A stretch of 62,563 bases of DNA, from IMG/VR virus record IMGVR_UViG_3300005613_000063, positions 1 through 62,563 of that record; one strand, given 5' to 3'. A program made the translations under genes and the position numbers. This document shows, piece after piece, positions 1-56,663 of the stretch. Numbering within the stretch: position 1 is the first letter of the stretch; each line of letters starts with the position of its first letter. The notes beneath the pieces were generated by a model. That model had not been told where the DNA came from, searched no databases, and saw only the letters and a list, made by a program, of their open reading frames with translations. The DNA is from a virus (lineage: Duplodnaviria; Caudoviricetes).

Positions 1-1416
1 GCGAGCAGCGAGGCGATGCGGATCTGCATTTGGGTTTGCCATCTCCTCGATTAGTTCTCTTACACCCGCACGACAAGCCATGATGCGCAGTTCGAGCTGG
101 TCTTTATCAGAGCCAATCATCACGCGGCCAGGTGGCGCTTCAAAGATTACCCGCCAGAGTAGGGCTACATTTTGTACATTAGGAGAGGAACTCCAACGGC
201 TACCTTTTTGTCCGGTGGGATTCCACTTAACATGCATGCGATTATCATTATAGATAGCTCTGGCATAGGCTCCAGGCTTTCCTTTGGGATCGAACGCATA
301 GTCCCCGGCATCCTTGAACATAGTGGAGTAGGCCATTCTGTCCTCGACATATTCAACGAACATACGTACGAATGGTTGCTCGAGGTGGTCAATGATTGCT
401 TTGTAGCTGGTGCTTGGCTCTTGTTCAATGGGCGTAAACTTAGTTGGTTGCAAGCCCAAACAATTGTGGTTGTTGGTGCCTGGTTTATCATACAGAACAT
501 GCCTTGTGTGCAGCGGTTTCTTTGGATTGTACTCCTGCCAATTTAGATATTCACGCATGCCATGGAGATTGCGTGCTATCTTTTCTTTAAGATTCTCCCC
601 GAGCTGTTTGCGTAAAGCTAAATTGATAGGGATGCCATAAATTTCAGCTCGAGCAGCAAGCTGTTGTCCTGCCATTTGATACTGTTCTAGCAGTGGCGTG
701 ACGCCTCTTGCGTATGCTTCCTTTCGCATAGGATGCAGCAGTTTGCCTGTGTTTAATGCATCTTTCCCATTGTAAACCAATAATTCTAGGATATCTGTAG
801 TCTGTGCCTGCTTGCGACCTTCGTGGTTCAGTTTCCATGGTTCGACATCCAACCATTGGTGGCCTATCCAACCCAAATCTTTTGGGTTATCAGGTTGGAT
901 GAGATGCGCATACGCTTGTGAATCAAGCATTGGTCCGTATATTTTATAGCCATGTTGCATGAGCACGGCATAGTCGAAAGGTCCGTTGTGGTATATTTTT
1001 GGAACAGATTCATCAGCCAACAAGCGCCGTAGCATTGCTACCAGTGGAGTTTCAACTTCCCATGGTAATGTATGCAAATCCTCCAACGTAAATGTTACGG
1101 CTGTGTTATAACCATCGACACCTGAGATAGCGATGGACCAAAGCTTGCAAGCCATAAATTCGACTGAGCTTGTTTCAACATCGACAGCGATAGTGCATTT
1201 GTTTTGTAGCCAGCGCTCCATCCAGGCTAGAGCTATTTGTAATGCACCATGCATTCCCAAGGGATTGGAAGGATGAACAACAACTATATTCTCTTCTTGA
1301 TTGGGGCCGAAATGTGCTACGCGCACAGCTTTCTGTAGATCTGCTATAACTACATCAGATAATTGAGCGCCGCGTAGAATGTGGGCGGGATGCAATGTTG
1401 GAATTACGTAAGCCAT
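1..1416 (-). CDS. polA: Family A DNA polymerase (3'-5' exonuclease plus polymerase; partial, runs off window) carrying the C-terminal piece of a family-4 UDG at its N-terminus
   Basis: Not in the ORF track; translated manually from ATG 1416. Starts MAYVIPTLHPAHILRG (UDG motif B). ExoI IAVDVET, ExoII YHNGPFD, ExoIII YNGKDA, then GSRWSSSPNVQN and motif A IGSDKDQLELRIMA. Confidence 0.93.
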   Translation of the reverse strand, partial: MAYVIPTLHPAHILRGAQLSDVVIADLQKAVRVAHFGPNQEENIVVVHPSNPLGMHGALQIALAWMERWLQNKCTIAVDVETSSVEFMACKLWSIAISGVDGYNTAVTFTLEDLHTLPWEVETPLVAMLRRLLADESVPKIYHNGPFDYAVLMQHGYKIYGPMLDSQAYAHLIQPDNPKDLGWIGHQWLDVEPWKLNHEGRKQAQTTDILELLVYNGKDALNTGKLLHPMRKEAYARGVTPLLEQYQMAGQQLAARAEIYGIPINLALRKQLGENLKEKIARNLHGMREYLNWQEYNPKKPLHTRHVLYDKPGTNNHNCLGLQPTKFTPIEQEPSTSYKAIIDHLEQPFVRMFVEYVEDRMAYSTMFKDAGDYAFDPKGKPGAYARAIYNDNRMHVKWNPTGQKGSRWSSSPNVQNVALLWRVIFEAPPGRVMIGSDKDQLELRIMACRAGVRELIEEMANPNADPHRLAAR

Positions 1417-15874: not shown

Positions 15875-16892
15875 GGCTCCTAAAATCAGCAACGGCATCC
15901 TTCCTCCAGAAATAGAAGAAGTGCACGATTATATTGAGGAAAGGCGTAGCCAAGTGCTAAAAGCCACGCCTCAAACTTATGAAGGACTACCGCCAATCAC
16001 AGGGATAAATCCTCCTGGCTACAGAATTCCAGAATCAAAAAAAGCACGGGCAGAACGAATCAAGACAGAAAAGGAAGCGCAATACATCATTCATCCACCC
16101 AAACAAGAAGATAGGCATTACGAAATTGAACAAGGATTAACTAAAGACAGTTGGCAAAAAGTATTCAATGCGTTTGCCGTAACGGGCAAGCCGACTATCA
16201 TTTCACAAGCAACAGACATACCCGCCAAGGCAGTCAAACACATACTCGATCATGGCATCTTAAGATTAGGGCTACCCAGCATTAAGCAACACAGCATCGA
16301 TCAAGCCCAACTTAATCTTGACATACAAGAGACAAAAGAAAAGCACAAAAAGAAACTTATGCAGAGCGATGTCACCGAGGCCATCCAAAAGCGAGCAACG
16401 CAGGAAGCTAGTTCGGCAAAGCTCATGCTCGATCAAACAATGGAAGTTGGAACCATCGTTGGTGGTTATGTCAAAGCCTTCTTCAATACGTTAAAGAAAG
16501 GTGACGCTACGCTGGCAATACCGGAACGGGTTGATTTAGATACCTTGGAAAATCTTACGAAGGTACTAGACTCATATACTAAATCAATGGAACGTGCAGT
16601 GAAGCTCGTGAATCTAACGCAGGGCAAACCAACAGAACGAGTTGAGCATCAAATCGGTGCTATGCTAGCAGTCTGCACAACAAGAGAGCTTGAAGAAGCA
16701 CAAAACTCTGGCAAGTTACCTGCGAGGCTCACATCCAGATTAGGAACCGCAGAACCAATGAAAGAAGGAGACAGCAATATCATTGAAGCACATGCCGTAG
16801 AGATACAAAAAAACACAAGCAACAATGACGAAACACCAGAGTGGCTCACAAGTATAAAACCCCCAGAGGGGGAAAGCACAGAAGATGAATGA
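15873..16892 (+). CDS. Hypothetical protein, candidate terminase small subunit
   Basis: Directly upstream of and overlapping terL; helical, with a possible HTH. Start taken at MAPKIS. Confidence 0.5.
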   Translation: MAPKISNGILPPEIEEVHDYIEERRSQVLKATPQTYEGLPPITGINPPGYRIPESKKARAERIKTEKEAQYIIHPPKQEDRHYEIEQGLTKDSWQKVFNAFAVTGKPTIISQATDIPAKAVKHILDHGILRLGLPSIKQHSIDQAQLNLDIQETKEKHKKKLMQSDVTEAIQKRATQEASSAKLMLDQTMEVGTIVGGYVKAFFNTLKKGDATLAIPERVDLDTLENLTKVLDSYTKSMERAVKLVNLTQGKPTERVEHQIGAMLAVCTTRELEEAQNSGKLPARLTSRLGTAEPMKEGDSNIIEAHAVEIQKNTSNNDETPEWLTSIKPPEGESTEDE

Positions 16893-18702
16893 TGAATGGA
16901 TGAATGACGAAGAACTAGAAACAGAGATCCCTTCAGTCATAGTATCACCAGATGAAGACGAAGATTATGATGAAAATGGAAGAAAGCACAAAAGATACGT
17001 GCCGCACATCAACGTAGACTTCAACGACTACCCAGAGAGTCAAGCCATCAACAGCAGCAGCAATAGCAATAGCAACAGCGACAATGTCATCTCCCTCACA
17101 GCGAAAAGAAGAGAGCAGCACAGAAGAACGCAATCCACTATCAAGACCGGAGCAAGGCTCGAGAAAATGCTCCGTGAAGCAAGAGAGCATCCATTAGGGC
17201 TCTATCGCCTCTGCTTCAAAGATGATTTCGGTGAAGCCGTGACTCTCAAGTGGTTTCACAAAGAGTGGAGCGACATGATCTTAACTTCATCCCACGTCAT
17301 GATTGAAGCTCCAAGAGGATCGACCAAAACGACCTTCATCATATGTTGTATCTTATGGATATTCGGACACAATCCAGAACTGCGCATCAAATTGATCTGC
17401 GGCAATGATGTCAATGCAGCAAAGAGATTAGATGAAATCAGGAGTCACATAAACAACGATCAACTCTACCAACTCGTGTTCCCGAATGTAAAAGAAGATC
17501 CACAAAGAACCAACAACACACTAGTCCTCAACCTCAAGCGAGCACGGCATACGAAAGATGCAACCCTCGAAGCCAAGGGGGTCCTCTCAGATGGAACTGG
17601 AGACCGAACAGATGTTCTCGTGCTTGATGATGTCTGCACCAGAAAAAATTCAGTGGATGAACCAGCGACCAGACCAAAAGTACTAGGCAAACTACGAAGC
17701 GATTGGTTAAATACGTTAGACCCAAGACAAGGAAAAGTATGGAGTATCTTCACCCCATGGCATGCAGAAGATGCCAACTCAATACTCAAAAAAGAGACCA
17801 AAGGAAGATGGGCCTACAAGCGTTATGCTCATGGCAAACCAGGCAACCCGCACTTCTCTATCTTTCCAGAGCTGTTCTCAGAAACCTATCTAAGGAAAAA
17901 GAGATTAGATATTGGTACGATAGAGTATTCGGCAGCCTATCTGTGCAAAACGGTCTCAGGTGATGTTCAGCTTGTCCGGAGCAATTGGCTCAGACCATAC
18001 AATAAACAAGACCTCGCACCCACCACGCTCAAAAAAGCCACAGTTCTCATCTCTATCGACCCTACAGGTGCTAAAGGCAAACAAAGCAAGAATAAAGACC
18101 CAGATTACACGGGTGTATCAATCTTGCTAATCGATACAGCACCCCATGAAACATACCACCAGCACGGGCGACCTGAAGCACCCAACAGGATCTTCGTCGT
18201 TGACGCTTATCAATTCAGAGCTAGCACCGCACATACAGCCCAGCACACCCTAGAGCTGTACAGAAAATGGAGACCAGATGTAATATGCATAGAAGCACAA
18301 GGAGCACAATCGCTCCACGAGTGGGTCTACGAGTTGGATGCGAGTATACCCATAGAAACAGTGTCGGCCACACTAAGCAAAAGAAGCAGGCTAGAGTCCA
18401 TAACTCCATGGTTACAAGATCACAGGCAAAGAGTACTGTTTCATCCCCAAGTAATCGAACTTGAACCCCAAACTTTCACAGCAAGCATCGGTGGCCCCAA
18501 TCCCACAGTCATTGAATGTCGTAGAACCCTGCGACATCAAATGCTTAATTTTCCCACCACGCATGACGATGTGCTCGATTCGACAGTCCAAGGCCTGAGA
18601 TTCACCAGGCAGTGGATACTACCATATGAGAATGAGGATGAGGACAACCCACCAAGAAATACGGCAGAGGTTGACATGAAGGTTCGTGTTATTTCTGCTT
18701 AA
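16885..18702 (+). CDS. terL: Terminase large subunit
   Basis: IEAPRGSTKTT Walker A, VLVLDD Walker B, FTPWH, ISIDPTG nuclease motif, IEAQ, FP..HDDVLDS. Confidence 0.92.
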   Translation: MNDEWMNDEELETEIPSVIVSPDEDEDYDENGRKHKRYVPHINVDFNDYPESQAINSSSNSNSNSDNVISLTAKRREQHRRTQSTIKTGARLEKMLREAREHPLGLYRLCFKDDFGEAVTLKWFHKEWSDMILTSSHVMIEAPRGSTKTTFIICCILWIFGHNPELRIKLICGNDVNAAKRLDEIRSHINNDQLYQLVFPNVKEDPQRTNNTLVLNLKRARHTKDATLEAKGVLSDGTGDRTDVLVLDDVCTRKNSVDEPATRPKVLGKLRSDWLNTLDPRQGKVWSIFTPWHAEDANSILKKETKGRWAYKRYAHGKPGNPHFSIFPELFSETYLRKKRLDIGTIEYSAAYLCKTVSGDVQLVRSNWLRPYNKQDLAPTTLKKATVLISIDPTGAKGKQSKNKDPDYTGVSILLIDTAPHETYHQHGRPEAPNRIFVVDAYQFRASTAHTAQHTLELYRKWRPDVICIEAQGAQSLHEWVYELDASIPIETVSATLSKRSRLESITPWLQDHRQRVLFHPQVIELEPQTFTASIGGPNPTVIECRRTLRHQMLNFPTTHDDVLDSTVQGLRFTRQWILPYENEDEDNPPRNTAEVDMKVRVISA

Positions 18703-45131: not shown

Positions 45132-45581
45132 ATGCTCCTCGTACATTTTTGGCTTTCTATATTTAGTGGTATAGGAATTTCCCATGTAGAAACAGGTCGG
45201 CTCTCTATGTATCATCCAGGCGATGGCCATTGTGGTACGCAAACGGCCTGTGGCAATACCTTCACAATGAAGTCTCATCACATTGCTCATCGAAGATGGT
45301 ATCGGTTGGGATGTGGTCGAGAGGTCATCGTTTGTGCTGACGCTACTGAACGCTGCATTGCTACTACTGTTCAGGATGGTGGCCCTTATGGTATTTACTA
45401 TGGAAAGATGAAGCACGCCGTGAAGCAGGGTAGATGGAAGGTGTGGACAAAGTATAAACCACCTAAGGGGTGGAAATGGCGAGCGATTGTAGATCTGTCT
45501 TGGGCCCTATGGGTGGATCTAGGAAAACCTAGGGCATTATCCCGAGTTCAGTTATACTTTCTCGTGCAACCGCAGGAGTAA
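45132..45581 (+). CDS. RlpA-like double-psi beta-barrel (lytic transglycosylase-like) protein
   Basis: SMY..G..TACG...IAHR...CG..V...VQDGGPY...IVDLS. Confidence 0.75.
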   Translation: MLLVHFWLSIFSGIGISHVETGRLSMYHPGDGHCGTQTACGNTFTMKSHHIAHRRWYRLGCGREVIVCADATERCIATTVQDGGPYGIYYGKMKHAVKQGRWKVWTKYKPPKGWKWRAIVDLSWALWVDLGKPRALSRVQLYFLVQPQE

Positions 45582-46277: not shown

Positions 46278-49200
46278 ATGGCCAGGACCTTCGTTCGACC
46301 TCAAGCACAGATCAAGAAAACCAATACATATGACGATACTAAGACGGTTGGTGCATCTTTAGAAACCGGCCAGTCTAACTTAGCTGATGACCTCAATGCT
46401 TTAAGATCTCAATGCAAGCGTGCCTTATGGGCAGATGAGTCCGGCAATTGGTATGATGATGTTCCAACACATACTGCCAAGAAGCGCGGCTTGGACGCAC
46501 TGAATGAAGATCTGAACGATATTGAAGTAAAAACCTTTCTTGTCTGTAATGCCAATTTAATAGATGTCTCTGTTGCAACAGGCACTAAAGCAAATGGCAC
46601 TCTCACTTTAACAGGGCAACCTGAAGAAGGGCATGAAGCTGAGGGCATATTAGAATTTACAGGGAATGCAAATAATGCTGACACAGTTACCATTGGTTCT
46701 AAGACTTATACTTTCCAAGATACTCTCACTGATGTCGACGGTAATGTTAAGATTGGCGCAAGTGCTTCTGCTACCATTGACAACTTGATTGCGGGTATCA
46801 ATCTTGGGGCTGGTGCGGGCACTGCTTATGCCGCTTCGATGACAGCCAATGCGGATGTTGCAGCTGCTACTGAATTCGGAGATTCCATGCGTGTTACTGC
46901 ATTGGATAAAGGCACGGATCCCAATTCGACTGCAACAACAGAGACTGGTGATAATCTATCTTGGCGTGATGCAACTTTAGTAAACGGAACAAATGCAAAA
47001 CGTGCTGGAGGCGTTTTGACATTAGCTTCTAATTTTATTGGAGAAGTGGCGGCTACCGGAACATTGACTGCATCTGCAAATGTCTCTGGTGGAGTTGCAG
47101 CTACTCAAACGTTGACTCTTGGTAGCAATCTCAATGGTATCCTGCCCGCTAAATTTCGTATTCAGATGGCCTTGAATATTACTAGTGCTCCTACCAACGG
47201 TTCTACAATTACTATTGATAGTACCGTTTACACATTCACCAATTCTGTAAGTTCGGCATATGATGTTTATATTGGTTCTTCTCCAAATTCTAATCAAGCC
47301 GCTTCGCATTTAGTAACTGCTATTAATTTAACTGGTACACCCGGTGTAGAATATGGTTCAGGCACTGCCATTCATCCCACAGTATCTGCCGTTTTGAATC
47401 TCTCGTCTGCAGTTATGACAATAGAGCTTACTGCCAAGACTGCTGGAGCTGCCGGAAACGCTATAACCGTAAGCGATTCAGGAAATTATGCTTGGTGGAA
47501 GTTTTTTGATAATCCGCCTAATCAAGCTACTCCAAATACATTTTGTAATGGTCGTGACGCAGATACAGTCACCATCGATACGAAGACCTACACTTTTCAA
47601 GAGACATTGACCAACGTCGATGGCAATGTGCACATAGGAGGTAATGCTTCTGCTACCTTGGATAACTTAATTGACGCTATCAATCTGGGGTCGGGCGCAG
47701 GTACAGATTATGCTGCAGCAATGACTGTACATCCCACTGTCTCCGCAGCAGCGGGTGCCGGTGACACTATGGATATTACTGCGAAAACAGGAGGTACAGG
47801 TGGTAATTCTATTGAAGTTGATGCTACCAATGGCGATGCTTATTGGACTGAGTGGAAACTGACTGGGGGTGCTGTAGGGGTTAAAGCTACTGGCACTATT
47901 ACTTTTGATAGCAATGCCGTGCGAGGGGAATCAGCCAGAGCTAATATATTTGGTGATACTATAAATGTTTATGACGGTAATACGGTAACCATTGATGGCA
48001 AGACTTACACATTTAGAAGTAGTTTAACAGGTTACCAAACTGTAAATGGAGTAGTTCTTAGGGGTGCATCAACATGGATTAGTATAGTTAATTTGGTTGC
48101 GGCTATTAATCTGGCATCTGGTTCTGGTACCACCTATTCATCTGCCACTACAATACATACAACAATGGGAGCAGCCGGTGGTTATGTAGAAGGAATTAGA
48201 GGTTTCTTACGTGTAGCTGCCAAAGTTCCGGGGTATGAGGGCTCTGGCATCTCGCTTAGTGATTCCAGCCCTTGGACAAGGATGCCTAGCTCAACTACAT
48301 ATCTACCGACTGAAGGAGATTCAGTAACAATAGATGGCGAGACCTATATATTTGTTGGAGATATCTCTAGTTCTTATTATAGCAATCAGAACATACCTAA
48401 TTTAGTTGAGGTAGGGGCTACAGCAAATGTCTCTATTAATAATTTAGTTTATGCAATAACAGAAAATGCTACGTGGAAAGGTACATTTTATTCTAACTCA
48501 ACTACTGCTCATTCAACTGTAACCGCGTCTAATGGAACAGGTGATACTTTAGATATTGAGGCATTATCTGCAGGTACCGGTGGCAATTCTATTGTATTTA
48601 GTGTCACTAGAGCATTGGGTAATTTGTCTATCGCCACCGACACAATGTCTGGGGGCGGTGACGGTGACACGGTCACGATGGACTCCAAGACTTATACTTT
48701 CCAAGATACATTAACGGACGTGAATGGAAATGTGAAAGTTGGAGCTTCTGCTTCTGATTCTTTAGATAATCTTATTGCTGCTGTTAATTTAGGTGCAGGT
48801 GCAGGTACTAAATATGCCAATTCCATGACATTACACTCCACAATGTCTGCTGCAGCTGGAGCAGGTGACACTATGGATGTCACAGCTAAAACCGCGGGCA
48901 CAGTTGGTAACTCTTTAGATACCACAGAAACAGGAGCTAATTTAAGCTGGGGTGGTTCTACACTATCTGGTGGATTAAATGGAGAAACTATAACTATAGA
49001 CGCGAAAGTCTATACGATGACTAATTCCCTCACTGATGTTGATGGACGAGTATTAATAGGCGCCGGGTCTGCAGACTCGATTAACAATTTGGTTGCTGCC
49101 ATTGGTCTGTTGCCCGGCGCCAATTCTTTATATGCCAATTCCATGACGATACATCCTACTTGCTTGGCTGAAGTAGGAACTGGGACATCTATTGATGTTT

Positions 49201-50876
49201 CAGCTAAGACGGGCGGTACGGCCGGAAATTCAATTGCTACGACAGAGACGGCTAGTAATGCTTCATTCGGTGGTTCCACTTTGAGTGGAGGCCTGGCAGA
49301 AGAAACAGTAACAATTGATACCAAGACTTATACATTTCAATCTTCTTTAACTGATGTTGATGGTAATGTCAAAATTGGTTCTGATGTAGATACAACTATT
49401 GCTAATTTGGTCAATGCAATCCTTCTGGGTCCTGGCACTGGTACAGCTTATGCAGATTCTATGACAGAACATTCTACTGTCACGGCAGCTGAAGGTGCTG
49501 GCGATACCATGACGGCAGCTGCAAAGACGGCCGGCACTGGTGGCAATTCAATTGCTACTACGGAAACCTTAGCCAACGGTAGTTGGGGCAATTCAACTTT
49601 ATCTGGTGGTACGGCAGGACCTGGTGGTGAAGTAAACTTTGTTGTTTTGTCTAAGGCTGCTGGAGAGATACCAAATTTGGATGCAGCTGTCGATGCCGTT
49701 TTAACTAGTGGGATGGTCGTGGCCTACAATTCTTCATTTGGTGCACATTCATTGAATGCGGTAGCTGGACAAACTGCTATATCACCTAAGAATATATGTG
49801 CAATAAAGCGGGTGTCCGACGGTCAACGCATATATTCTGGGGGCAAAGTTGTGCACGCACTACTTCAGTGCGAGGATAATACGGATGGTCACACATTTGA
49901 CGATACAAGCAAACGTGCAATGCTCTCATTTGTTCGTGAGAATTCTACTGGGGATGCTTTAGAGGCTTGTCCTGTTGCAGATATCGATGGGGAAGCTGTG
50001 CATTACAGTTACATCGAGCGCGTTGATTATGATTCTATTGATGAATCTGCCTTCCTAAATAACTATCATGATGTTGTTACGATACCTGCAGTGGATGTGA
50101 ATTTGAATGATTGCATCGACAATCAATCTGGTGCTGCGACTCAAGCTCAAGATATTGATGTGGACATCCTGGATACCAAAGCTTGGGTCTTTAGAGATTC
50201 AGCTGCTGCTGATTTGTTCAAAGTATATGGCAATGCTGCTAGCAGTTCAACAGAGGTTGAAATTGGTTCTGCTGTAGACATTTATGATAATAATGCAGCA
50301 GATGTAGACTTTCATAATGGGGCCGCTATAGGTTCTGCTGGGACTGAAATTGCTATTAATGAAACTGCTGGTGTGATCGAACGAGCGGCTAATTTAATAT
50401 TGCGAGCTTCCGGCTCTGGGGAATTATACCTAGATGATGGTAATCAACCAGGCAGTTGGGCACAAACGGATGGGATTAAATTATCGGAAAATGAAACTGA
50501 GTGGTCTGATTTCGAAACGGAGTTTGGTGGTGAGGTCTCATTGCTCAAGGCCATTACTCAAGCTTCCAATGCAGCTGCAAGGTCTATAGGTACGGCTGTA
50601 TTACAAGATGATGTTTCAGCAAACAATGATGTAGATGCGACCACGACTAGCAATTTGGACGTAGACTTGCCAGATTATTCTGGGGTTACTTCTTTTGTGA
50701 CAGATGTGGATGTGTTTTTAAATGGTAAATTACTTAATAATGGTGCGGATGCGGCTGCCAATGAAGATGTATACCCAGGCACTACACCTGCACAAGGTAT
50801 GCTTAAATTCGAATTTGACTTAGACGGCACGAGTCCAAATCCTGACGTCTTGTCAATGATAGTCTGGGGTGAATAA
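46278..50876 (+). CDS. Large virion protein (fibre/decoration-like) with eight nested sheath-like insertion modules
   Basis: Eight TVTIDxKTYTF..GNV.IG..NL.AAIN..TAK..G..GNSI..L.GG bodies; N- and C-termini paralogous to the next ORF. Confidence 0.8.
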   Translation: MARTFVRPQAQIKKTNTYDDTKTVGASLETGQSNLADDLNALRSQCKRALWADESGNWYDDVPTHTAKKRGLDALNEDLNDIEVKTFLVCNANLIDVSVATGTKANGTLTLTGQPEEGHEAEGILEFTGNANNADTVTIGSKTYTFQDTLTDVDGNVKIGASASATIDNLIAGINLGAGAGTAYAASMTANADVAAATEFGDSMRVTALDKGTDPNSTATTETGDNLSWRDATLVNGTNAKRAGGVLTLASNFIGEVAATGTLTASANVSGGVAATQTLTLGSNLNGILPAKFRIQMALNITSAPTNGSTITIDSTVYTFTNSVSSAYDVYIGSSPNSNQAASHLVTAINLTGTPGVEYGSGTAIHPTVSAVLNLSSAVMTIELTAKTAGAAGNAITVSDSGNYAWWKFFDNPPNQATPNTFCNGRDADTVTIDTKTYTFQETLTNVDGNVHIGGNASATLDNLIDAINLGSGAGTDYAAAMTVHPTVSAAAGAGDTMDITAKTGGTGGNSIEVDATNGDAYWTEWKLTGGAVGVKATGTITFDSNAVRGESARANIFGDTINVYDGNTVTIDGKTYTFRSSLTGYQTVNGVVLRGASTWISIVNLVAAINLASGSGTTYSSATTIHTTMGAAGGYVEGIRGFLRVAAKVPGYEGSGISLSDSSPWTRMPSSTTYLPTEGDSVTIDGETYIFVGDISSSYYSNQNIPNLVEVGATANVSINNLVYAITENATWKGTFYSNSTTAHSTVTASNGTGDTLDIEALSAGTGGNSIVFSVTRALGNLSIATDTMSGGGDGDTVTMDSKTYTFQDTLTDVNGNVKVGASASDSLDNLIAAVNLGAGAGTKYANSMTLHSTMSAAAGAGDTMDVTAKTAGTVGNSLDTTETGANLSWGGSTLSGGLNGETITIDAKVYTMTNSLTDVDGRVLIGAGSADSINNLVAAIGLLPGANSLYANSMTIHPTCLAEVGTGTSIDVSAKTGGTAGNSIATTETASNASFGGSTLSGGLAEETVTIDTKTYTFQSSLTDVDGNVKIGSDVDTTIANLVNAILLGPGTGTAYADSMTEHSTVTAAEGAGDTMTAAAKTAGTGGNSIATTETLANGSWGNSTLSGGTAGPGGEVNFVVLSKAAGEIPNLDAAVDAVLTSGMVVAYNSSFGAHSLNAVAGQTAISPKNICAIKRVSDGQRIYSGGKVVHALLQCEDNTDGHTFDDTSKRAMLSFVRENSTGDALEACPVADIDGEAVHYSYIERVDYDSIDESAFLNNYHDVVTIPAVDVNLNDCIDNQSGAATQAQDIDVDILDTKAWVFRDSAAADLFKVYGNAASSSTEVEIGSAVDIYDNNAADVDFHNGAAIGSAGTEIAINETAGVIERAANLILRASGSGELYLDDGNQPGSWAQTDGIKLSENETEWSDFETEFGGEVSLLKAITQASNAAARSIGTAVLQDDVSANNDVDATTTSNLDVDLPDYSGVTSFVTDVDVFLNGKLLNNGADAAANEDVYPGTTPAQGMLKFEFDLDGTSPNPDVLSMIVWGE

Positions 50877-50969: not shown

Positions 50970-52874
50970 ATGGGTAGAACATTTCTGCGACAGGCCGCAC
51001 AAGTTCGTGAAAGCCAAGTTTATGATGACACCAAATCTGCTGGATCTACTCTAGAATCCGGTCAGACTCACATTGAAGACGATCTTAATGCATTGCGCTC
51101 GCAATTCAAAAGAGCAATTTGGGCTGATGAGTCTGGTAATTGGTATGACGACATTACCACACACAATTCCAAAAAGCGCGCTATCGATAAGCTGAATGAG
51201 GATCTCGATGATGTTGAAGAACATCGATTTCTGTTCAGAACACAGGTTCTGACAGACATCTCTGTGCCAGCTGATGCCGCGGCAACTGGCACCTTAACTT
51301 TTGGTTCAAATCCTTCTGCTACCCAAACTGTAACAATCGACACAAAGACTTATACGTTCCAAGCCACCTTAACGGATGTTGATGGCAATGTTCATATTGG
51401 AGCTACTGCTTCTGACTCCCTTGACAACTTGATTGCCGCTATCAATTTGGGTGCTGGTTCTGGTACTGCTTATGCAGCCTCCATGACACTCCATCCGACA
51501 GTTTCTGCTGCTGCAGGCGCTGGTGATACGATGGATGCAACTTGCATATTAGGTGGAACTCAAGGTAACTTGATTGCGACTACTGACACTGTTACAGGCA
51601 ATCCAAACTGGGGGGCTGTAACTCTGACAGGCGGTACTGGAAACTCTGTTGTTCTTTCTGTTGCAGGTTCTGAAGCTCCAAGTCTTACAGCTGCAATTGG
51701 TGCTGTAACTACTGAAGGCGCCGTCGTTGCTTACAGCGCTAGTTTTCCTAATCATACAATGACAGAAGTTGCTGGACCAAGTGCGATACGACCAGACAAT
51801 CTTTGTATTGTCCGTCAGCAACAATCTGGTGACCCTATCCTCTCTGGTGGGAAACAAGTTTATGCCCTAATCCAATGTGAGGATAATACAGACGGGCATA
51901 CGTTTGATGATGATGATGAGCGAGTCATGTTAGCCTTCATTATTGAAAACTCAACAGGTGATGACTTGATCATTTGCCCAGCAGCTGATATCGCTGGGGA
52001 AGACATTAACTATTCTTATGTGCAACGTCTGAAATTCGATTCGTTACCAGAAAGTGCCTTCTTGCAGGGTGTGTTTGTCGATCAAGCCGCAGCGGTTGAC
52101 GTAACACTCGACAATGCAATTGATAATCAATCTGGTGCAGCAACCCAGGTTCAGGATATCGATGTTGATATCACTGATACCAAGGCATGGGCCTTCCGCG
52201 ACAGCGCGTCTGCAGATCTCTTAAAGATCTATGGAAACGCTGGTGGTTCTACCTCTGAGGTAGAGATTGGTGCTGATGTCGATATATATGACAATAATGC
52301 AGCCGATGTTGATTTCTCCTCTGGTGCCGCTTTTGGCTCCGCTGGAACAGAGATCGCTATCAATGAGACAGCCGGTGTTGTTGAACGCGCCGCTGATTTA
52401 ATATTGCGAGCATCTGGTTCTGGTGAGCTGTACCTTGATGATGCAAATCAACCTGGCAGCTGGGCTCAAACAGATGGTATCAAGCTGTCAGAGACAGAGA
52501 CTGAATGGTCAGACTTTGAGACCGAATTCGGTGGTGAAGTCTCACTGTTGAATGCCATCGTGCAAGCTTCTAATGCTGCGGCTCGAACCAAAGGTTCAGC
52601 TACTCTTCAAGCTGATGTTGCGGCTGACACGGACGTTGATGCAACCACTTCGTCTAATTTAGATGTGGACCTTCCAGATTATTCTGGCGTTACCTTTTTA
52701 ACTGATGTTGATGTGTTCTTAAATGGGGTGCTGCTTCGTAATGGTGCTGATGCTGCAGCCAACCATGATGTTTATCCTGGTACAACGCCTGCTCAAGGTA
52801 TGCTCAAGTTCGAGTTTGCTTTGGAGGGTACGTCTGATCCCGATCAGCTCACCATGATCGTCAACGGCGACTAA
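50970..52874 (+). CDS. Paralogous virion protein with a single module
   Basis: Same termini as 46278-50876; one contiguous ATGTLT..TVTIDTKTYTF..LTGG unit. Confidence 0.8.
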   Translation: MGRTFLRQAAQVRESQVYDDTKSAGSTLESGQTHIEDDLNALRSQFKRAIWADESGNWYDDITTHNSKKRAIDKLNEDLDDVEEHRFLFRTQVLTDISVPADAAATGTLTFGSNPSATQTVTIDTKTYTFQATLTDVDGNVHIGATASDSLDNLIAAINLGAGSGTAYAASMTLHPTVSAAAGAGDTMDATCILGGTQGNLIATTDTVTGNPNWGAVTLTGGTGNSVVLSVAGSEAPSLTAAIGAVTTEGAVVAYSASFPNHTMTEVAGPSAIRPDNLCIVRQQQSGDPILSGGKQVYALIQCEDNTDGHTFDDDDERVMLAFIIENSTGDDLIICPAADIAGEDINYSYVQRLKFDSLPESAFLQGVFVDQAAAVDVTLDNAIDNQSGAATQVQDIDVDITDTKAWAFRDSASADLLKIYGNAGGSTSEVEIGADVDIYDNNAADVDFSSGAAFGSAGTEIAINETAGVVERAADLILRASGSGELYLDDANQPGSWAQTDGIKLSETETEWSDFETEFGGEVSLLNAIVQASNAAARTKGSATLQADVAADTDVDATTSSNLDVDLPDYSGVTFLTDVDVFLNGVLLRNGADAAANHDVYPGTTPAQGMLKFEFALEGTSDPDQLTMIVNGD

Positions 52875-55802: not shown

Positions 55803-56663
55803 TTGAAGAACGCCTTAGTGATAAGTGGTGGCGGGAGTAAGGGCGCATTCGCGATAGGCGCCATAGAGCACTTGCTTGAACTTGGTATCAAGTTCGATAT
55901 TCTTATTGGAACCAGCACAGGTGCTTTAATAGCACCTATGCTGGCCACGGGGCATTTTGAGACAGTAAAGCATGTTTATCAGAACGTGAGGACCAGAGAT
56001 CTGCTGCGAAGGCATTGGTGGATAACTATGCCTTGGCGTAGATCTATTTACAGCACCAAAGGATTGAAAAGTTTAATAGATAAGCTGCTGCTCCCTGGTA
56101 TCTATTCGGACTTATTGTCTTTGGGTCTGCGAGAAGATAAGCTTGTATTAATTTGTACTACTAACTTAAATACTGGAAGTACACATTATTGGGCACCGCA
56201 TGACACCCCCAACAGAGAAGCTTATGTAGATTGCCTTTTAGCAAGCTGTAATCAACCAGGTCTGATGACCCCTGTAAAACTTCGTGGCAATGAGTGGCAT
56301 GTAGATGGTGGCGTTAAGGAAATAGCGCCAGTGCAAGCTGCTATTGATGCTGGTGCTACTAATATTTATGCAATCGTATTAGATACACCTAGACCATTAT
56401 ATATACCAGATGAGTACAAACGTATTCCTCAAATACTATTGCGTGCATTGGACTTGATGTTTTATGAGATCAGGGAAAATGATATTAGTATTGTGGAAGA
56501 AGAGTGTTGTAAGGCTATATATAAACGCAAGCTTGTTCTAATTAGACCGGAAGAATCATTGTTTACAGATGGCCTTGAATTTATACCAGAGCAAATGCAA
56601 TCAATGATGCGCATTGGGTATGAAAGAGCGAAGGAAGTTATGTGTGAAGAGAAGCATGAATAA
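55803..56663 (+). CDS. Patatin-like phospholipase
   Basis: SGGGSKG oxyanion loop, GTSTG nucleophile and DGG catalytic Asp. Confidence 0.92.
   Translation: MKNALVISGGGSKGAFAIGAIEHLLELGIKFDILIGTSTGALIAPMLATGHFETVKHVYQNVRTRDLLRRHWWITMPWRRSIYSTKGLKSLIDKLLLPGIYSDLLSLGLREDKLVLICTTNLNTGSTHYWAPHDTPNREAYVDCLLASCNQPGLMTPVKLRGNEWHVDGGVKEIAPVQAAIDAGATNIYAIVLDTPRPLYIPDEYKRIPQILLRALDLMFYEIRENDISIVEEECCKAIYKRKLVLIRPEESLFTDGLEFIPEQMQSMMRIGYERAKEVMCEEKHE

Follow-up and report, generated by a model that had tools for sequence, protein, structure and literature searches.

How should a protein be read in which eight short opening units and eight longer, homologous bodies follow one another in runs instead of alternating one with one? 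The question is raised by a gene in a 62,563-nucleotide stretch of DNA (the window, analysed over its full length; IMG/VR virus record IMGVR_UViG_3300005613_000063, positions 1 to 62,563) from a virus assigned to Duplodnaviria, Caudoviricetes. The open reading frame at 46278..50876 on the plus strand has a stop-free translation of 1532 amino acids (aa) and encodes a phage structural-like protein, referred to here as P0001. We suggest that its modules probably nest in each other's loop between strand 1 and strand 2, in a bracket tree with two forks. This reading draws on the composition of a paralog in the same window, P0002, on the pattern of split copies in a large family of relatives, and on structure prediction of two long-range pairs. 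All features of P0001 and P0002 given below lie on the plus strand.

Anatomy of P0001

P0001 contains eight homologous bodies (B) of 106–120 aa and eight opening units (O) of 16–20 aa in the order O O B O O O O B B O O B B B B B. The segments abut, with no linkers between them, and all eight bodies align to each other and to the body of P0002, with 34–68% identity to the latter. The opening motifs start at aa 104, 120, 242, 258, 274, 290, 536, and 552, with a spacing of 16 aa inside each run, and the bodies start, at the pattern [TS][VI]T[IM][GD], at aa 136, 310, 430, 569, 682, 798, 904, and 1010. A first-pass annotation of the window had named eight opening strands (KANGTLT, EAEGILE, RAGGVLT, AATGTLT, AATQTLT, PAKFRIQ, KATGTIT, SARANIF) and eight bodies; all of them were located, the body starts (nucleotides 46683, 47205, 47565, 47982, 48321, 48669, 48987, and 49305) fell within 3–4 nucleotides of those proposed, and re-mapping returned the same order of units.

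Along the chain, an N-terminal flank (aa 1–103, 46278..46586), which is conserved with P0002 and its family, is followed by O1 (aa 104–119, 46587..46634) and O2 (aa 120–135, 46635..46682), both recognized by their motif. O2 adjoins its own body, B2 (aa 136–241, 46683..47000), which is placed by the body-start motif and the body alignment, and one profile match spans aa 121–237. Then come O3 (aa 242–257, 47001..47048), O4 (aa 258–273, 47049..47096), and O5 (aa 274–289, 47097..47144), again with the motif, and O6 (aa 290–309, 47145..47204), which is divergent and 20 aa long. O6 adjoins B6 (aa 310–429, 47205..47564), and a profile of the whole module matches aa 298–407 from profile position 5. 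B5 (aa 430–535, 47565..47882), placed by the body alignment and predicted by AlphaFold2 (AF2) at a predicted local distance difference test (pLDDT) score of 85–98, precedes a run of two, made up of O7 (aa 536–551, 47883..47930; found by motif) and the divergent O8 (aa 552–568, 47931..47981). O8 adjoins B8 (aa 569–681, 47982..48320), with the module profile matching aa 560–662 from position 8. The remaining bodies are the divergent B7 (aa 682–797, 48321..48668), followed by B4 (aa 798–903, 48669..48986), B3 (aa 904–1009, 48987..49304), and B1 (aa 1010–1115, 49305..49622), all three placed by the body alignment. The C-terminal flank (aa 1116–1532 and the stop codon, 49623..50876) is defined by the translation and the family alignment. 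An O-only profile scored O7 weakly and missed O6 and O8, which the full-module profile covers in part.

The numbering anticipates the proposed pairing. In it, B6 and B8 would be the tips of the tree and B1 would close the outermost module. O3 and O4 are assigned to B3 and B4 by a split-chain prediction described below, and the putative pairs O1–B1, O5–B5, and O7–B7 are deduced from the bracket order. The chance that a random order of eight O and eight B is bracket-balanced is 1430/12870 = 0.11, and for this reason the order alone is weak evidence; the strength of the argument comes from the family-wide pattern instead.

Mutual identity of the bodies is 29–64% at the protein level and, for the closest pairs, 61–64% at the DNA level, which points to old, maintained copies and neither to a recent repeat nor to an assembly artefact. 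Three bodies, B6, B8, and B7, stand out as the longest (113–120 aa) and most divergent (29–45% identity to other bodies, with B6 at the extreme). As the first-pass annotation had noted of these distal bodies, they are also rich in aromatic residues: phenylalanine, tryptophan, and tyrosine make up 9.2% of B6, 8.8% of B8, and 7.8% of B7, compared with 2.8–5.7% in the other bodies. We infer that B6, B7, and B8 may make contacts with a surface; the receptor-binding role that the first-pass annotation expected of these tips is putative.

The module is a single insertion unit with a sheath-like fold

The paralog P0002 (50970..52874; 634 aa) is, by alignment and by its AF2 model, the same host protein with a single module. 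It had been singled out as carrying the intact module, and one opening unit and one body are indeed found in it, at aa 102–222 (51273..51635), the stretch that is missing from module-less relatives. The P0002 family numbers 789 proteins at an expectation value (E) ≤ 0.001 among the candidates scored; among the 120 matches listed, most are ∼630–660 aa long with one module and some are ∼511–521 aa long with none. In a 117-row alignment (A2), 15 of 15 module-less members are without exactly aa 102–222 of P0002 (100–220 in one). Because these relatives lose both parts together, opening unit and body are one insertion unit, and the module is an insertion inside host proteins that is gained or lost whole.

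An AF2 model of P0002 built with the same alignment has a mean pLDDT of 82.6, with the module at 94–97, and its opening unit is a strand (residues 103–110) at pLDDT ∼96. Structural matches of the module begin at model residues 101–105 and reach ∼225, so that the O strand is included in them. The best is the sheath protein of cyanophage A-1(L) (8kee_A, Z 10.0, root-mean-square deviation 2.6, 90 residues aligned), and other sheaths that match are those of Mu (9khy_a, Z 8.1), PhiTE (9cb9_A, Z 7.7), and Milano (8fop_T, Z 6.0, 29% identity). The module also resembles a domain of T7-like tail proteins (Z 7.3–8.6), domains D2–D3 of FliD (Z 6.3–7.5), and the flagellin FliC of Pseudomonas aeruginosa (4nx9_A, Z 6.6), where, by the tool's own note, a Z of 7–8 can reflect merely a common arrangement. 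This structure search is independent of Foldseek, which alone gave a best E of 0.035 with the P0002 model. By its shared α/β fold, the modelled module belongs to the outer insertion domains of the sheath, FliD, and flagellin type.

Sequence searches of Pfam, PHROGs, NCBIfam, and the PDB leave the body unnamed, apart from one short PF05354 stretch. PHROGs returned no match for P0001 or P0002 and NCBIfam nothing over its cut-off, PDB sequence searches with P0002 and with a body profile gave chance matches only, and tblastn found no match in 50,697 phage records. PF05354 (Phage_attach) is a family of lambda FII-type head–tail joining proteins. It gives the only Pfam match above the cut-off, at aa 634–693 of P0001 (48177..48356; profile positions 28–84 of 99; 31.5 bits, cut-off 26), in a stretch that runs from the tail of B8 into the initial hairpin of B7, and it has no match in P0002 at E up to 1. 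The NCBIfam model tail_join_FII reaches 17.6 bits in a FlgE relative, under its cut-off of 25. We read the PF05354 match as a local motif likeness and not as membership. PF05354 is also precomputed on FlgE and flagellin relatives, and the Pfam model may pick up a hairpin motif of the module.

Recursive self-insertion across the module family

When 1.84 billion representative proteins were searched with a profile of nine bodies, 4,684 matched at E ≤ 0.001; P0001 has the top score, with a profile that was built from its own bodies. The hosts include flagellins, FlgE hooks, and tail sheaths (P0152, P0176, P0184, and P0188 are sheath proteins among the sequence matches that carry the module), together with proteins carrying other Pfam families and many unnamed phage-like proteins, and the module is thus a widespread surface insertion domain. 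Of the 4,684 matching proteins 150 were listed, and 344 proteins were fetched and mapped in all, with a 118-position module profile made from 100 single-module relatives, in which O corresponds to positions 1–16 and the body to positions 17–118. One protein of the fetched collection, P0122, is identical to P0001 and is excluded from the bracket counts below.

Split copies among the 344 proteins take the form of runs of [1-x], one whole copy, and equal runs of [x+1-118], and the split points cluster near profile positions 16, 33, 44, 61, and 82. For example, P0124 has six [1-44] parts, one whole copy, and six [44-118] parts, and P0126 and P0127 have five parts on either side of a whole copy. 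Further examples are P0216, with three [1-34] and three [33-118] parts, P0333, with two [1-81] and two [84-118] parts, and P0125, in which a copy split at 59/64 encloses five O units and then five bodies. Nests in the family span 2–7 levels. Forks, in which one host has two guests, are present in P0282, P0223, P0328, and P0276, and P0221 has guests in two different loops. An architecture that is otherwise rare thus proves common in this domain family.

Written as strings of typed brackets, the proteins that are split at position ≥33 are valid in 55 of 97 cases, compared with 22.4 expected under shuffled token order. With the O class included, the count is 64 of 147, compared with 24.2 expected by shuffling, and weak matches, when admitted, rescue several parse failures. 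Profiles detect O units only when these are close to the consensus, and a second one made from 637 units did no better; the O counts, and with them the number of valid strings when the O class is included, are therefore too low. The closing orders can be told apart where a single chain combines different split points: last-in-first-out closing is valid in 7/23 (O class included) and 4/9 (splits ≥33), for example in P0220, P0222, and P0268, and first-in-first-out closing in 0/23 and 0/9. The remaining mixed-split proteins fail both orders, mostly via undetected or mislabelled tokens. These patterns show that the family obeys recursive self-insertion, with a homologous domain interrupting the domain and leaving complementary parts, and that the interrupted parts close last-in-first-out.

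The FlgE protein P0168 (6 copies) and the flagellin P0195 (9 copies) carry plain tandem modules, each with its own O. Taken with the nested phage copies, they indicate that both architectures exist for one domain. The tandem arrangement extends to the FlgE-like proteins P0168, P0180, and P0242 and the flagellin-like proteins P0195, P0196, P0205, and P0207 (5–9 tandem modules with own O strands), and their outer regions would then be giant arrays of the very domain that phage proteins nest. In two further proteins, P0247 and P0325, a C-part [43-118] stands first and an N-part [1-42] last, and whole and split copies fill the interior. The two terminal parts could form one circularly permuted outer module that closes over the full array, or they could be completed by other subunits.

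When longer relatives of the host family were searched for, no other member with several modules at the site used in P0001 turned up. Because P0001 is the only such member found, tree topologies are not comparable among orthologues.

Predicted docking of distant opening units

Structure prediction of residues ∼100–1115 had been proposed as a way of seeing which opening strand completes which body, and it was run with the chain split and with the chain whole. In a split-chain ESMFold2 prediction, aa 796–1009 (B4 and B3) formed chain 1 and aa 241–273 (O3 and O4) formed its partner, both cut from a 47-row alignment (A3). Three runs gave interaction prediction scores from aligned errors (ipSAE) of 0.78, 0.78, and 0.75, and none of the three controls exceeded 0.12. 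In a benchmark of this mark, which is rough since our own alignment was used, 58/80 solved complexes and 2/110 mismatched pairs reach it. The partner has a pLDDT of 90–91, at least 98% of contacts agree across runs, and the expected errors are 0.5–0.7 Å.

Among the listed best pairs, O4 (aa 257–264) meets only residues of B4 (aa 865–870, 877–878, 890, and 896–900), and aa 247 of O3 (partner residue 152) meets aa 972 in B3 (chain-1 residue 877). An offset of 106 separates the interface set of B4 from that of B3, meaning that both bodies use the same slot. The O strand is modelled as an inner strand, antiparallel between the strand at body positions ∼66–73 and the last strand; as an example, in model numbering, residues 162–164 of O4 meet 804–805 of the last strand of B4, and 168–169 meet 795. 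This antiparallel arrangement would bring the N- and C-terminal ends of a module next to each other, and a module with adjacent ends would be insertable. In silico, then, the prediction supports O4–B4 and O3–B3 paired as in the bracket tree, and not crossed.

A single-chain AF2 prediction of aa 96–1125 gave less. Its alignment, again A3, covers B5, B4, B3, and B1 well, B2 poorly, and B6–B8 hardly; MAFFT alignments of aa 1–1200 with single-module relatives were rejected because flanks of the relatives were smeared over the bodies. The model has a mean pLDDT of 66.6 and a predicted template modelling (pTM) score of 0.42. B2, B5, B4, B3, and B1 fold at pLDDT about 85–98, and O2 is a strand at pLDDT 69–92, with structural matches that span O2 and B2 (model range 24..141). 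By the ranges of structural matches, the model places distant strands in strand-1 slots, though not those of the bracket tree, and it gives no confident separate domain for the O runs. The single-chain model leaves the long-range pairs of the first-pass annotation unconfirmed, and two of them, O4–B4 and O3–B3, are recovered by the split-chain run.

Weighing the alternatives

Several observations weigh against the nested pairing. In the single-chain model O1 and O3–O6 have pLDDT of about 24–48 (35–69 when O1 is taken over aa 104–119, and 24–33 for O5) and B6–B8 are mostly below 50. Match ranges in this model, in model numbering, place O4 with B3 (159–163..898–914; for example 8es4_E, Z 6.8, 89 aligned), O7 with B4 (439..804; one row, Z 3.8), and the tail strand of B6 with B5 (295..439). 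Solved sheath-like domains known to the predictor may account for part of the split-chain result, and, as that prediction was run in trans, within-chain and between-subunit pairing look alike in it. Co-divergence does not single out the tree: for the five long-range O and B of P0001, 75–83% of 120 pairings score as high as the nested one, and the position of the full nested pairing in the top 4–5% of 40,320 pairings is due to the adjacent pairs. In linear nests of relatives, last-in-first-out pairing of the halves correlates positively in 7 of 8 proteins, with single p-values of 0.03–0.58 and with P0124, P0126, and P0127 in the set related to each other. Finally, the automatic parser rates many proteins invalid, P0001 included; P0001 fails because 16-aa O units are hard to detect by profile. 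Given its low confidence and unfolded inner modules, the single-chain model speaks only tentatively on pairing, and we count it against the exact tree; B6–B8 are unfolded in it because alignment depth is lacking there. The pairing first proposed thus stands in part: the opening unit is strand 1 in the models, it forms one unit with the body, the family closes last-in-first-out, and O4–B4 and O3–B3 dock as expected, with the single-chain model and the co-divergence test withholding support.

If the bodies were complete on their own, the O runs would be linkers or a small separate beta structure, and equal counts would be a by-product of repeat duplication. Such beads on a string fit the contrast between five confident bodies and the poorly predicted O1 and O3–O6, and the plain tandem copies in P0168 and P0195. 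Those tandem copies, however, each retain their own O, with profile matches from position 1–2, and in the P0002 module O is a confident strand inside the fold, lost jointly with the body in all 15 relatives examined. A run of O units docks in equivalent slots of B4 and B3 far above the controls and forms no confident separate domain, and complementary split parts at five loops are inexplicable by linkers; this arrangement is very unlikely. A different topology would arise if every strand-1 slot were filled, but not by the bracket partner. The placements of O4, O7, and the B6 tail strand in the single-chain model would suit it, the last strand of each P0001 body resembles the O motif in sequence, and PMC11515920 reports that HABAS domains of another recursive system, Si3, exchange secondary-structure elements. 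Yet the strands in question have pLDDT below 50, three runs with O3, O4, B4, and B3 alone yield O4–B4 and O3–B3 with small expected errors, and relatives with mixed split points close last-in-first-out. We consider shifted or swapped strands unlikely.

Completion could also take place between subunits, with the O runs of one protein copy completing a neighbour's bodies in the virion, as in donor-strand exchange. The success of the split-chain prediction in trans is what this would give, and the terminal parts of P0247 and P0325 could be closed within or between chains. Against it, the segments are free of linkers and the ends of guests are adjacent, which make folding within one chain the simplest reading, and in the AF2 model the module of single-module relatives is folded in cis. 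Completion between subunits is, in our view, highly improbable.

The proposed tree and its relation to known systems

On the nested reading, the surface site after aa 103 of P0001 would carry eight copies of a ∼122-aa α/β insertion domain, each combining a ∼106-aa body with a 16-aa opening unit that serves as its own, indispensable strand 1. Seven of the eight copies would sit in the strand 1–strand 2 loop of another copy, with guests separating the strand 1 of a host copy from its body in sequence. Read last-in-first-out, the units would give the tree 1(2, 3(4(5(6), 7(8)))), which forks at modules 1 and 4, and each O strand would lie within the sheet of its own body, in the inner position modelled for O4. 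The outcome would be a branched, rigidly linked domain cluster projecting from the virion protein; its antler-like overall shape, exposure on the virion, and function are presumed. A single unequal crossover in an O or B run would unbalance the protein, and growth of a balanced nest may therefore need copy-into-copy insertion or paired events filtered by selection.

A broader proposal, which we hold to be doubtful, is that the domain is a self-compatible block with a bracket grammar, able to host itself at about five loops, with which phages grow dendritic surface appendages of variable depth and branching. Balanced growth would then need either a dedicated mechanism for copying DNA into itself or strong selection on unbalanced intermediates, and P0001 would be the largest tree seen.

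Branched recursion as such is not new. PMC13114784 and PMC11515920 describe Si3 of the cyanobacterial RNA polymerase β′ subunit as a recursive HABAS-in-HABAS insertion of six levels with bifurcating nodes. The first-pass annotation, which was not aware of a branched self-similar version, is out of date on this point, and its claim of novelty was too strong because branched recursive insertion has been published for Si3. In both systems homologous domains are inserted recursively and hosts can hold several guests. The domains differ: that of Si3 is a beta hybrid motif (sandwich-barrel hybrid motif) hosted by the trigger loop of an enzyme, whereas the P0001 module is an α/β sheath-like domain. 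The architecture of Si3 is fixed in its lineage, whereas relatives of the P0001 module vary in depth (2–7 levels), in branching, and in the loop used (about five). What appears to be new is recursion in a surface domain of the sheath and flagellar type, the many hosts with varying depth and branching and about five loops, and the proposed eight-module, two-fork tree of a phage protein. A literature search found no paper on nesting of this domain, which is weak evidence of absence.

Contractile tail sheaths are a second point of comparison, as the best structural matches of the P0001-type module are their outer domains. The insertion domains of sheaths have been called 'Russian doll' in the sheath literature; these dolls nest different domains linearly and are not known to nest copies of one domain in a branched fashion. 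The outer domains of flagellin, FlgE, and FliD share the fold, and the same sequence module occurs in the FlgE protein P0168 and the flagellin P0195, but the flagellar copies are tandem with their own O strands and not nested as in P0001. Chaperone–usher pili use donor-strand complementation, in which the strand is supplied by another subunit. P0001 would be like pili in one respect, in that a sheet short of one strand is completed by a strand from elsewhere. The two are not homologous, however, and in P0001 the strand would most likely be donated by a segment of its own chain that lies hundreds of residues upstream.

If the tree is true, it does not open a new category, with branched recursive self-insertion already published for Si3 of RNA polymerase, but it would offer a test bed for how far a domain tolerates insertion of its own copies, for the order of folding when strand 1 is made about 900 residues ahead of the rest, and for the origin of balanced nests at the DNA level. 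For annotation, it would mean that split parts should be counted and paired and that bodies should not be labelled as tandem repeats. For protein engineers, it would point to loops that tolerate insertions in a small surface domain widely spread among phage tails, sheaths, and flagella.

Identity of the host protein and genomic surroundings

The window is part of a tailed-phage genome, with genes for DNA polymerase, helicases, primase, the large terminase, and a deoxynucleoside monophosphate (dNMP) kinase, and with weak matches to portal and spanin; among the annotated neighbours in the window, the P0001 gene has no tail or head module next to it. For the host protein, BFVD returned mixed names, among them gp68 of PhiJL001 (E 7e-11) and an 'uncultured' major tail protein, all scores in the protein atlas were below 0.8, and no fibre family was matched in Pfam, PHROGs, BFVD, or the protein atlas. 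Four long relatives (P0132, P0345, P0346, and P0348; 2,182–2,626 aa) have one module at the same site. They align to aa 1–452/488 of P0002 and continue, past this shared N-terminal part, with 1,700–2,100 unrelated C-terminal residues. A shared N-terminal part with a diverging C-terminal part is typical of fibre-like phage proteins, and the alignment suggests that the host is a fibre-like protein with exchangeable distal ends.

Some other features of the window are of separate interest. The open reading frame directly after P0002 (52936..53691, +; 251 aa) has no family match and ends in a lysine-rich, repetitive tail; from this composition it could encode a scaffold- or DNA-binding-like protein. 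Upstream of P0001, a 149-aa open reading frame (45132..45581, +) has a weak match to DPBB_1, a lytic transglycosylase-like barrel, at E 8e-4, under the cut-off. Inside the phage late region, an open reading frame of 286 aa (55803..56663, +) matches the patatin-like phospholipase family PF01734 at E 3e-32. The 2-kb bin at 16001..18000 has an AT skew of +0.33, far over the rest of the window, and overlaps the large terminase gene (16885..18702).

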